The position numbers and the translations under genes were made by a program. Shown here one piece after another: positions 36,931 through 40,599 of a DNA stretch of 47,832 nt. How positions within the stretch are numbered: the first letter of the stretch is position 1; every line of letters begins with the position of its first letter. The stretch covers positions 1-47,832 of the forward strand of contig NKIB01014085.1 in assembly GCA_002256025.1 (NCBI GenBank). Reading direction: 5' to 3'. The DNA comes from Asterionella formosa (Eukaryota). The notes under the pieces were generated by a model that searched no databases, was not told the DNA's origin, and worked only from the letters and a program-made list of their open reading frames with translations.

Positions 36931-38217
36931 TGTAGAGTTGTTGTTTGGGTTTGCTGTTGGAGGTTTATAAGCGCCCGAGGTTTTATAGAAGTTTCTATTT
37001 GCATCACCACAGACGCAATGCAGACCAGCCACTGTAATACGTAGGTTCTACAGGAAATCGGACCATGAGCTGGGAACCAATGTGAATCCATTGGGTAAAG
37101 ATACACTGACAAACTGATAATAAGTTTTTTGAATTTTGTTTTTTCGATTGCTGTAGCTAGCCGAGCTTGCGTGCCGACGAACAAGCAATCCAGTCCATGA
37201 CGAAATTAGGGTTATTTTCCACTTGCCGCCGTGATTGCAGTATTTACCATATACTGGAGTGCACTCCCTGTAACACAGCACCGCGACAGAAATGCTTGGT
37301 TCTCCTACCAGGTACTCTACCATACTCGTCAGCCAGCCACGATCTCACATTTCATATCATGATCACACAAATGATAGTGAAGAACGACATGATATAACAT
37401 TCATATGTGGATACATGCATGAGCCACATCAAGAATCAAAGTACCGGTATACAGGAAGGAGCAGGAAAACACCAACGGAAGAAATTTCTAAAATCGTCGT
37501 AAGTACCTGGTATAACAGGTACCTGGTACCCCCTGTATCTACCAGTATGACAAGCTGGCCTCTATGGTACCTGGTACCCTGGACCCTGGCACCTTGCTTA
37601 CCCAGAGCAACGTGACGGAATCAAGATAACAACGGTACTGGTGCTACTCCCTGTACACTTACTACCTGTAAATACTACCAGAGTGGTTGTCTATCGCCCA
37701 CAGACCATGCATGTCCGGTTTACCACCTTATTCGAGTAATACGTAGTTTCAAGCAACAAACAATACACATGATACGAACATACAGAGGAATCTAAAAGGA
37801 AAAAGAGCAGTCTCAAGACAATGATAACTTGCCAATCCATAATACGAAATGGAATGAGAGAGAACAAGATTGTAACCCTACTGCATGAGCTAACTATCAC
37901 ACCAACTGTGACACGGTGGATGACCAAGCAGCACTAGTCCACATACCAGTAGACTACCAGGTACCGTACATGTTAGTTAACAATCAGGAAGTCAAGGTGA
38001 ATACGTTAATGCAGACTTATATTGGGTTGCAGTGCACTATACGATTCGTCAGGGGACTCCAAAATGTGGGTTACACTGGACTAATACTCAATATGGAAAG
38101 ACTGACAGTTACCTGTCTGTATCGACTTCTTATCTTTAGAGCTCCATCTATAGATGTGTCGATCACCTTCTACTATGGGTAAACAGCCATTCCACTGCTT
38201 AACTCAAAATGTAGCCA

Positions 38218-39067
38218 TCAATCTAGACATTCTTCAATTCCCAATGCTTGACAAGTCTGTTTTTGCAACAATAATCTAACTTGTGCCCTCTTTTTCATCG
38301 CCAATGTATATGCCTCCTTCAGTTCCACCTCCACAATTTGATTCGACCTTAACAATTCCTGAATCCTCGTCATTTGTTGAGTCCTTGTTCGCTCCATCCC
38401 CTTTAAGTGTGACACTCGCTCAGTTACAGCTTCACTTTTTTCTAAAACCCTCGATGCCAGAGTTGCAACCAAACCTGCGTCCTTTTCTCTCTCTACCAGT
38501 TGATAGATTCGTATATAGTCCTCTCGCTTGTGATTTTGTGTTGTACCACCAACCCGCTGGACTGCTGCTACTGTATCCACATCGGCATTGCGATAGTTTT
38601 GCCAAAATTCTTCAAAGTCAGGTTCCGTTGAAGAATTGCTGGTCGCGGCTGTATTTCCAGATTCAGGAGCGACAGCATCACGGAGGCCTCGGAGGGCTTC
38701 AAACATGGCAAGCGAGAGCCTAAATATAATAGTAAGTGGAGTAATAAAAAAAGATTGGGTTTGTGACATTCAGAAAGCCAAATCAATTATTATGAAAATT
38801 AAGTTGACTTACCCATCTGTTGATAAATTGTATTGAAGGAAATTTATCAACGGGTCAGAAACGCTTGTTTTGATAAAAACCAAAATAATTTTATGTTGTG
38901 TTGTGTCTCAATCTTTTATGTTTGGATTCCTTCTCACCTATACTATCTAGAATTGCGGTAATTTCGTCAGTTTTTAGATCTGGCGCAGTCTTTGGAAAAA
39001 TAGAAACAATTTGAGGATCTGTGGATGGAACAGGAGCCATTGGCTCCTCTGTCGTTGTTGCCGCCAT
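38218..39067 (-). CDS. MED21: Mediator subunit Med21/Srb7-like, 211 aa; predicted exons 39067-38938, 38816-38813, 38719-38218
   Basis: TDEITAILDSI-DG-LSLAMFEALRGL resembles the Med21 N-terminal helices. LASRVLEKSEAV...SHLKGMERTRTQQMTRIQELLRSN resembles its C-terminal coiled coil. The reading frame is restored by a 4-nt exon. Confidence 0.75.
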
Positions 39068-40599
39068 CCTGTTATTTTGAAGCTGAGGGTTGAGAAAATG
39101 ATGGTTGTCCAATTTATAATTCAGGTGTATTTTACCGGTATTGCCGTGCATTCATAATCGAAGGATGATGTTTGATGTGCACCAGACCACAATCCAAGAA
39201 GTATGCTGTAGACGTTTTGCTGCAGGCAACAATCCTACGGTACATCGTTGGTTGTGATGTACCAGGTACCGCATATACATATGGGTTTGCATGTGCCGTA
39301 TGTTCTGTATTTATTTATAATTTAAGACGCATGTAAATCGCCTGGAAGGTTCTGTCGGCCTGTAATCTGCAAATGCTCCGTCTACTCTTGTATCTACTGT
39401 ACCGGTACTCTACCAGAAAGTTACGGTCATTTTGCTAAAATAAGAAATTTTATCTTCGATAAAAAAGCTAAATCCTTAGTTCAGCATGATTACCGCAACT
39501 TGCAGGTATTCCCTCTATGTAGTTGAAAATAATTGCGTCAATTCTTAAAATTTCTCGGGGGCAATGTTGATCAACACGATTTTCTCCGACTCAATTGTCC
39601 TAGTATGCGCCACATAAAAGACTAGAGATCTACCGGTATGTATGTTATTAAAAAAAGTTAACTTCAAATTGGCAACTACGTCTCAAAAAGACGTGTTAAA
39701 GCTTTTTCGATTTTCACTTTTGCCTATCTCGCTCGAGCAAAATGCAGCCAGCCAGATACCACCCATTTTTTGCCACAACTCAATCTTAACAAGTAGGGGG
39801 GCAGGTGGGGGGGTTCTGGTGCTATATGGCTGCATTAGATTCAAAACGTTCCCCTGTCCTCCTTTCTACTAATTAAGAGAAAGCAGTCAATATCCATATC
39901 GCTACTTTTTGTTTCAAAGTGGCTTATTTATCATACATCCACAAAAATTTGTTACAATTCACGATTTGCCAACCGTAAACTACTATGATAGTATATGCTA
40001 CACATAAATTGAAAATATGTGTTGCTTAGTACTATGATATAATTTATGTTTCAACCAGATCATCGAAGGCAAAAGTAGCCACTCCGTATCCTCAAATGTT
40101 CATGCACCACTTTGCCGAATCGTAGGAGTTGTGTAAAGGCTCCAAAACAAGAGCCCTGTGGCCAACATGGTAGAGGTGAGTCATATCTCTGTTTCCTGAG
40201 ATATACCTTGAGAGGTCCCACATCACACATTGTTCCTGGAGCTTGCTTTCGTGCTCTCCATCTTGACTTTAACATCCCGTTCATTTTCACCAGGAGTGAT
40301 CTTGTTGTCGATGTAGGTCAACACGCACGGACAGAACAGTAACAGCACTTCTAGAGCCTGGATAGCTTGCTAGTGGAACTTGCAAGTCCCCTTATTGTTG
40401 CACGCCCCTAGCCCAAGAATCCATCCATCCGGCTCCATCCGAACGACCACATCGTCGGCGACAATGGTGCTTGGCTGATTGTTGCATCAAGTCGTCATGT
40501 CATTTGTCATTTGTATAAGTATCTATGGTTCTACATATGTATTATATATTGATATGTTCAAATGGTTTCGAATAATTTATTTAGGTGCTGATAATATCA

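Follow-up and report, generated by a model that had tools for sequence, protein, structure and literature searches.

The window (the whole 47,832-nt stretch of DNA analysed here) carries on its minus strand a Med21 gene whose coding sequence is split into exon 1, an exon of four nucleotides and a last exon, separated by two short introns (Table 1). On that strand exon 1 ends ...GAT AGT ATA G|GTGAG at 38938, in phase 1; an acceptor and a donor then lie four letters apart in the string ...atcaacag|ATGG|gtaagt (38816-38813), and the last exon, contained in the open reading frame 38218..38769, starts ...atatttag|GCTCTCG at 38719 with the third position of a Gly codon. The microexon provides the AT of an Asp codon, split G|AT, and the GG of the adjacent Gly codon, split GG|G. 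An initial annotation had proposed this arrangement together with introns of 121 and 93 nt, a coding sequence of 636 nt and a CTGAC motif upstream of the microexon. All of these coordinates and strings matched the sequence, the motif being located at 38858-38854 in intron 1, where its A stands 38 nt from the intron's end.

Table 1. Parts of the Med21 gene in the window and their cover by RNA contigs of runs X1, X2 and X3 (described in the text).
Feature	Positions	Strand	Description
5' untranslated region	39068..39187	-	Contig reach: X3 to 39082, X2 to 39089, X1 to 39187
Exon 1, coding part	38938..39067	-	130 nt, ATG at 39067; upstream pieces of X1, X2 and X3 end exactly at 38938
Intron 1	38817..38937	-	121 nt, GTGAGA...AACAG; skipped in RNA contigs X1, X2 and X3
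Microexon ATGG	38813..38816	-	4 nt, between AG and GTAAGT; letters present in X1, X2 and X3
Intron 2	38720..38812	-	93 nt, GTAAGT...ATTTAG; skipped in RNA contigs X1, X2 and X3
Last exon, coding part	38218..38719	-	502 nt including TGA 38220-38218; gapless cover by X1, X2 and X3
3' untranslated region	38000..38217	-	X3 contig to 38052; X1 contig to or beyond 38000

Joined by script on the window, the three coding segments (130 + 4 + 502 nt) give a 636-nt sequence for 211 amino acids plus a stop codon, with no internal stop. When the four nucleotides are absent the frame breaks: exon 1 joined directly to the last exon reaches its first stop after 93 residues. Retention of intron 2 leads immediately to a TAA and ends the product after 45 residues, and retention of both introns ends it after 58. 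The frameshift and the immediate TAA had both been anticipated in the initial annotation. Within the 218 nt that separate exon 1 from the last exon, ATGG occurs a single time, placed between AG and GTAAGT. Two segments of up to 19 nt in this interval fit the form AG-N(3k+1)-GT, namely ATGG and a 1-nt C followed by a poor donor (GTTTCT). When the 218 nt were shuffled 20,000 times at mononucleotide level, 13 of the shuffles contained the string AGATGGGT.

A search of an RNA index returned 11 runs (nine holding all or part of the stretch, seven recorded as RNA; six studies). Four runs of four studies, X1, X2, X3 and X7, were aligned to positions 38000-39300. All are represented by Logan contigs, that is, by assembled sequence as opposed to raw reads, and parts of the window outside the cover of RNA contigs are uninformative. 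X1 is RNA by guess, X2 is a polyA transcriptome (depth 228), X3 a polyA metatranscriptome and X7 a metatranscriptome. Runs X3-X8 are labelled as lake-water or freshwater metatranscriptomes, and the source diatom is apparently a freshwater one.

X1, X2 and X3, belonging to three studies, each hold one contig with a single joint, 38720->38938, at which 217 nt are skipped and the letters CAT (plus strand) stand between the two sides. The pieces of these contigs differ from the window by 0-2 letters per piece. Read on the minus strand, the joint is G(38938)+A+T+G+G(38720)+G(38719), the aligner having placed the fourth letter on the G at 38720 that closes the intron; therefore, the mRNA consists of exon 1, ATGG and the last exon. 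The junction predicted from the DNA was in this way found in RNA contigs of all three runs, and the letters of the microexon stand between its flanking exons in mature RNA as well as in the protein P0002 (see below). The observation of the microexon is confirmed. Since four letters alone cannot map uniquely, their placement at 38816-38813 rests on the uniqueness of ATGG in the intervening DNA, on its AG and GTAAGT flanks and on the occurrence of introns at the same positions in other diatoms. With the boundaries AG|ATGG|GTAAGT the element falls under the definition of a microexon as an exon of <=15 nt bounded by canonical AG and GT, as given in the accessible text of PMC8831610.

All three spliced contigs (3/3) include the microexon, contigs resolving neither the inclusion level nor rare isoforms. 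No joint skipping it was found among the contigs of X1, X2, X3 and X7 over 38000-39300, a resolution that rare isoforms escape, and inclusion is the one isoform of the pair seen at the locus, as far as contigs, which may miss rare forms, can tell. Two other joints were looked for in the contigs of X1, X2 and X3, both of them absent: the direct one between exon 1 and the last exon, which breaks the frame, and the splice of 38938 to a downstream AAG (GAAG|CC), which the initial annotation had named as the outcome that would contradict it. From X7 came a contig of 244 nt (depth 2.2) that follows the DNA without a break between 38595 and 38838, running across intron 2 and the microexon and 22 nt into intron 1; it represents either unspliced pre-mRNA or DNA carry-over.

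At the 5' end of the gene, the ATG at 39067 has an A at -3 and a G at +4, and most orthologues begin with MA. This context favours 39067 as the putative Med21 start codon. A second in-frame ATG is found at 39149-39151 (minus strand); it directly follows a TGA and precedes the ATG at 39067 by 28 codons. The contig of X1 (to 39187) spans the ATG at 39151, and those of X2 (39089) and X3 (39082) stop short of it.

Taken alone, the last exon matched the Pfam Med21 family (PF11221) with an E value of 1e-5 over profile positions 71-140, and exon 1 alone matched 0 Pfam families. P0001, a plain ORF of the Med21 locus (183 aa) that runs through intron 2, matched profile positions 72-140 only. P0002 (202 aa, jgi and Logan, from a 1167-nt contig), which includes part of exon 1 and the microexon, matched positions 2-140 of 144 (E 2e-7, 31.8 bits). 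This score is below the curated gathering cut-off of 37.3, though the E value is significant and the match near full-length; PF11221.14 is precomputed in the protein database for both P0001 and P0002. The growth of the match on addition of exon 1 and the microexon bears out the proposed Med21 identity of the host gene. P0002 equals the joined translation from the second Met onwards and is 100% identical over the last exon. At the junction it reads ...ILDSIDGLSLAMFE..., i.e. it contains DSIDGLSLAMFE (in a longer reading, ...TDEITAILDSIDGLSLAMFEALRGLRD...). Together with the junction in X1, X2 and X3, this agrees with the product ...DSI-D-G-LSLAMF... that had been predicted, and the interpretation of ATGG as a frame-restoring 4-nt Med21 exon is supported.

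A protein search with the last exon identified 258 relatives at E <=0.001 among 493 candidates, and the best 120 of the 258 were examined. The named relatives (UniRef, NCBI) are Mediator subunit 21 of diatoms, from Cyclophora tenuis, Nitzschia inconspicua, Seminavis robusta and two Thalassionema species. When a profile of 12 diatom orthologues was used as query, it retrieved the yeast Srb7/Med21 chains 1ykh_B, 5oqm_n and 1yke_B with E values of about 0.005, the only distinct PDB sequences at E <=0.01. The yeast chains and the names of the orthologues relate the product to experimentally defined Med21/Srb7; the C-terminal part alone aligns to the chains, so that the solved structures carry no information on the microexon residues.

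In the alignment of the 12 full-length diatom orthologues, proposed earlier as a check at the motif IDGLS, the Asp split by intron 1 is invariant (12/12), the next residue, split by intron 2, is Gly in six and Ser in the other six, and the block after the microexon residues, LSL[AS]MFEALRGLRDAVAPESGN, is almost invariant. Thus, the microexon sits where the Med21 domain begins, in the stretch of the protein with the highest conservation. The product of the window holds the conserved ...ID[GS]LSLAMFEALRGLRD... N-terminal helix region of diatom Med21. With the microexon included, a core transcription factor subunit receives a corrected gene model; the N-terminal helix region at the head of the Med21 domain is missing from the ORF-type protein.

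The initial annotation had further suggested that gene predictors would miss the microexon, and the database proteins bear this out, starting with P0001, which reads through intron 2. The N-termini were classified by script in the 115 proteins that contain the core motif, from the best 120 of the 258 relatives; P0001 and 4 proteins lacking the motif as written were excluded. In 61 of the 115 the N-terminus is uninformative, nearly all of these proteins starting with MFEAL. Read-through of an intron marks another 27, with the mark of intron 2 in 19 and that of intron 1 in 8; two of these eight are doubtful, P0115 because the codon ahead of its Asp cannot have A as its last letter, and P0120 because its N-terminus may be genuine. 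The full conserved N-terminus is present in 26/115, P0002 being one more. A separate count, among the matches listed, concerned 32 proteins that are extended at the N-terminus by sequence in which the conserved exon-1 motif is missing. In 21 of them Ser or Arg (AGN) directly precedes LSL with no preceding Asp, as results from read-through of the intron-2 acceptor, and nine have D[GS] before LSL, as results from read-through of the intron-1 acceptor. The remaining two, P0056 and P0057, match neither pattern.

P0056 (Cylindrotheca fusiformis, 253 aa) continues in frame from exon 1 (DAI-GKFE..., G|GTAAG) via about 50 foreign residues to ...AEGA-LSLAMFE, and appears, to judge from these residues, to be an intron-retaining model of the same Med21 junction. 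It was dropped as evidence on layout, an intron layout not being derivable from a protein alone. One truncation can be followed within a single 90% cluster, which groups P0018, an NCBI-sourced "hypothetical protein" of 163 aa beginning with MFEAL, with P0122, a protein of 212 aa with the full conserved N-terminus from a 956-nt Logan contig. P0018 being the shorter of the two, Med21 is therefore truncated in at least one deposited diatom annotation. The same N-terminal error is widespread among public diatom Med21 entries and serves as a warning for diatom annotation. Two further Med21 homologues, P0034 and P0044, bear apparently wrong JGI names, "Mg2+ and Co2+ transporter CorA" and "gas vesicle protein".

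A scan of metagenome contigs yielded 17 loci, in each of which the DNA upstream of the FEALRGLR motif was examined. One of them, L005 (10.9-kb contig), has both introns, of 98 nt and 70 nt, around a 4-nt exon ACAG. There exon 1 ends ...GAT AGT GTC G|GTACGT, followed by ccctacag|ACAG|gtagga (L005:2426-2429) and then by ...cgtag|C TTA TCT CTG GCA ATG. The combination G+ACAG+C encodes Asp-Ser and gives DSVDSLSLAMFE, a string also present at the N-terminus of P0051, a relative of L005. Seven AG-N(3k+1)-GT candidates are present in L005, and ACAG alone yields Asp followed by Gly or Ser; the other 4-nt candidate, TTTT, would encode Val-Phe and was rejected. By sequence, L005 thus holds a predicted 4-nt exon at the same codon positions as that of the window. 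This exon and the intron-2 read-through mark in 21 of the 32 extended proteins show conservation of the microexon in relatives.

Other loci have one intron or neither. Intron 1 alone is present in L012 (81 nt) and in L013 (94 nt; identical to L014 in the compared region), and intron 2 alone in L006 (172 nt). Neither intron is found on the long contigs of L001 (10.5 kb; equal to L002 in the compared region), L003 (4.2 kb), L009 (13.9 kb) and L017 (14.5 kb); L009 and L017 are genomic, because opposite-strand ORFs of >600 aa lie beside the gene. The introns of L005, L006, L012 and L013 are canonical GT...AG introns at exactly the two canonical positions, and they agree in phase with those of the window. 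L008 has an acceptor like that of L006 on a contig cut just upstream, and L010 begins inside the last exon; both are uninformative on intron 1. Upstream of the intron-2 acceptor, the end of the L008 contig (L008:1-60) resembles a sequencing adapter and may be a transposase mosaic end; if so, the cut is artificial. L004, L007, L011, L015 and L016 (1.0-1.5 kb, contiguous) may be transcripts and were set aside as genomic evidence. With all four intron states in related diatoms, the locus therefore forms a compact natural series, which bears on how the spliceosome handles introns 4 nt apart and on the origin and loss of such exons.

A quick tree of 70 rows (14 loci and 56 proteins; 174 columns) was computed with IQ-TREE under LG+G4, with SH-aLRT as the only support and a midpoint root for drawing; 59 unnamed truncated proteins, P0001, the 4 proteins without the motif, L002, L014 and L010 were omitted. 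The window's Med21 pairs with P0005 (SH-aLRT 99), and the two fall in a set of 16 rows (SH-aLRT 97) in which, as drawn, Thalassionema species and Cyclophora are among the nearer relatives. L005 falls in a set of 54 rows (SH-aLRT 97) with Nitzschia, Cylindrotheca and Seminavis. The window and L005 are thus separated by a branch of 97% SH-aLRT support, on either side of which the read-through marks of both introns occur. The simplest reading of these marks is that both introns would predate the split and have been lost repeatedly since, the marks coming in part from ORF-type proteins and the root of the tree not being fixed; the alternative is a parallel gain of introns at the same sites. A wider reading, which we hold to be slightly less likely than not, would make the pair of introns ancestral at least to pennate diatoms, with the pair still whole in two or more distant lineages (the araphid-like one of the window and the raphid-like one of L005) and one or both introns lost elsewhere. 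On this reading, constitutive exons of <=6 nt would form a class found throughout the diatoms, spliced stepwise by intron definition and systematically unannotated.

The explanation that we hold with great confidence is that ATGG is a real 4-nt coding exon of diatom Med21, present in every spliced transcript seen, between two short introns four nucleotides apart that are presumably removed sequentially and probably old. The microexon exists because two ordinary introns (121 and 93 nt) sit four bases apart: the Asp codon is interrupted by an intron in phase 1 and the Gly codon right after it by one in phase 2, which leaves 4 nt between them. Exon definition cannot recognise an exon of 4 nt, and the RNA-supported exon of Med21 is well below the size allowed by exon-definition models. 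Four bases would be too short to accommodate the 3' splice-site complex and a U1-bound donor simultaneously. With no room for both complexes, removal of the introns is therefore most likely sequential and governed by intron definition. Were intron 1 removed first, the result would be a 134-nt exon ending TGG|GTAAGT; were intron 2 removed first, the acceptor ACAG| would be followed by a 506-nt exon. On the intron side of the microexon's donor the perfect GTAAGT probably aids recognition. Within the pennate diatoms both introns may be old, with separate losses in many lineages, the 4-nt exon persisting only where both survive. The accessible part of PMC4674806 argues for sequential removal in the case of the 1-nt APC11 exon and reports it for the 9-nt potato invertase exon.

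A constitutive exon is not the only role that could be imagined for these four letters. As a regulated switch, conditional skipping of the microexon or retention of intron 2 would give a frameshifted or truncated Med21 and tune the assembly of Mediator. Either event would abolish the protein, given the stops after 93 and 45 residues, and the shallow X7 contig does run unspliced through intron 2, the microexon and part of intron 1; among plants, the accessible text of PMC8831610 describes alternative forms for some 1-nt microexons (VPS55). However, the X7 contig is wholly unspliced and may be pre-mRNA or DNA, whereas all the spliced contigs from three studies include the microexon and the skipping joint was not found in them. 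Moreover, many diatoms have fused the four nucleotides to a neighbouring exon or lost both introns; the arrangement is therefore dispensable for Med21 function. Four nucleotides are also not a multiple of three, unlike the known regulated microexons that remodel proteins. The on/off switch suggested in the initial annotation has no support, at the resolution of contigs, and is quite improbable.

That there is no microexon at all, the true gene having a single intron and the assembly an indel or misjoin, is a reading that the initial annotation had itself named as a possible contradiction and to which we give hardly any weight: no support for such an error was found, the four extra letters of the RNA occur once in the intervening DNA and between canonical AG and GTAAGT, the RNA contigs agree with the window on both sides, and L005, an independent contig of another diatom, has the same two-intron layout. 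A non-canonical split, such as one into a 3-nt exon (ATG) and a last exon that begins at 38720, is permitted by the alignment alone, which put the fourth letter on 38720 and three letters between the two sides, but has next to no chance of being correct, as ATG would then have to be followed by a GG donor, and 38720 preceded by an intron with TA as its last letters, whereas the canonical split AG|ATGG|GT needs no exception and both positions carry canonical introns in L005, L006, L012 and L013.

The 4-nt exon can be set beside three known systems. Recursive splice sites (ratchet points) act as zero-length exons of the form AG|GTAAGT, typically in very long introns. Like them, the Med21 element has a strong GTAAGT donor close behind an acceptor, and the intron segments on either side would be expected to be removed in steps. 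It differs in that four translated nucleotides stay in the mRNA, so that it is not a zero-length site, and in that its introns are short. Animal neuronal microexons are mostly multiples of 3 nt, alternatively included and tissue-regulated; they share with the Med21 exon a very short length within structured regions of proteins, whereas the latter is 4 nt long, essential for the frame and present in all spliced contigs seen.

Closest are the ultra-short constitutive microexons of plants. According to the accessible text of PMC8831610, plants have 2,398 microexons of 1-15 nt in 10 species, most of them unannotated. Among them are the 1-nt exons of APC11 and VPS55; most monocots have lost the introns on either side, and the base of the 1-nt exon is subsumed in one exon. 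Ultra-short constitutive microexons are already known, and the Med21 microexon reveals neither a new mechanism nor a regulatory switch. New here are the diatom lineage and the Med21 gene: no report of a diatom or MED21 microexon was found in the literature searched, which consisted of papers open without subscription and their main texts, and the word "mediator" has 0 occurrences in the accessible text of PMC8831610. To the extent that the accessible parts of PMC8831610 and PMC4674806 describe them, the plant exons agree with that of Med21 in being internal coding exons of a few bases, bounded by canonical introns and essential for the frame, with donors of the GTRAGT type. They are likewise often unannotated, giving wrong N-termini, and are merged into a larger exon in relatives that have lost introns. 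On the same partial view of the plant cases, the Med21 exon differs in residing in a diatom (stramenopile), in being known from sequence and RNA contigs, and in occurring among relatives that display all four intron states.
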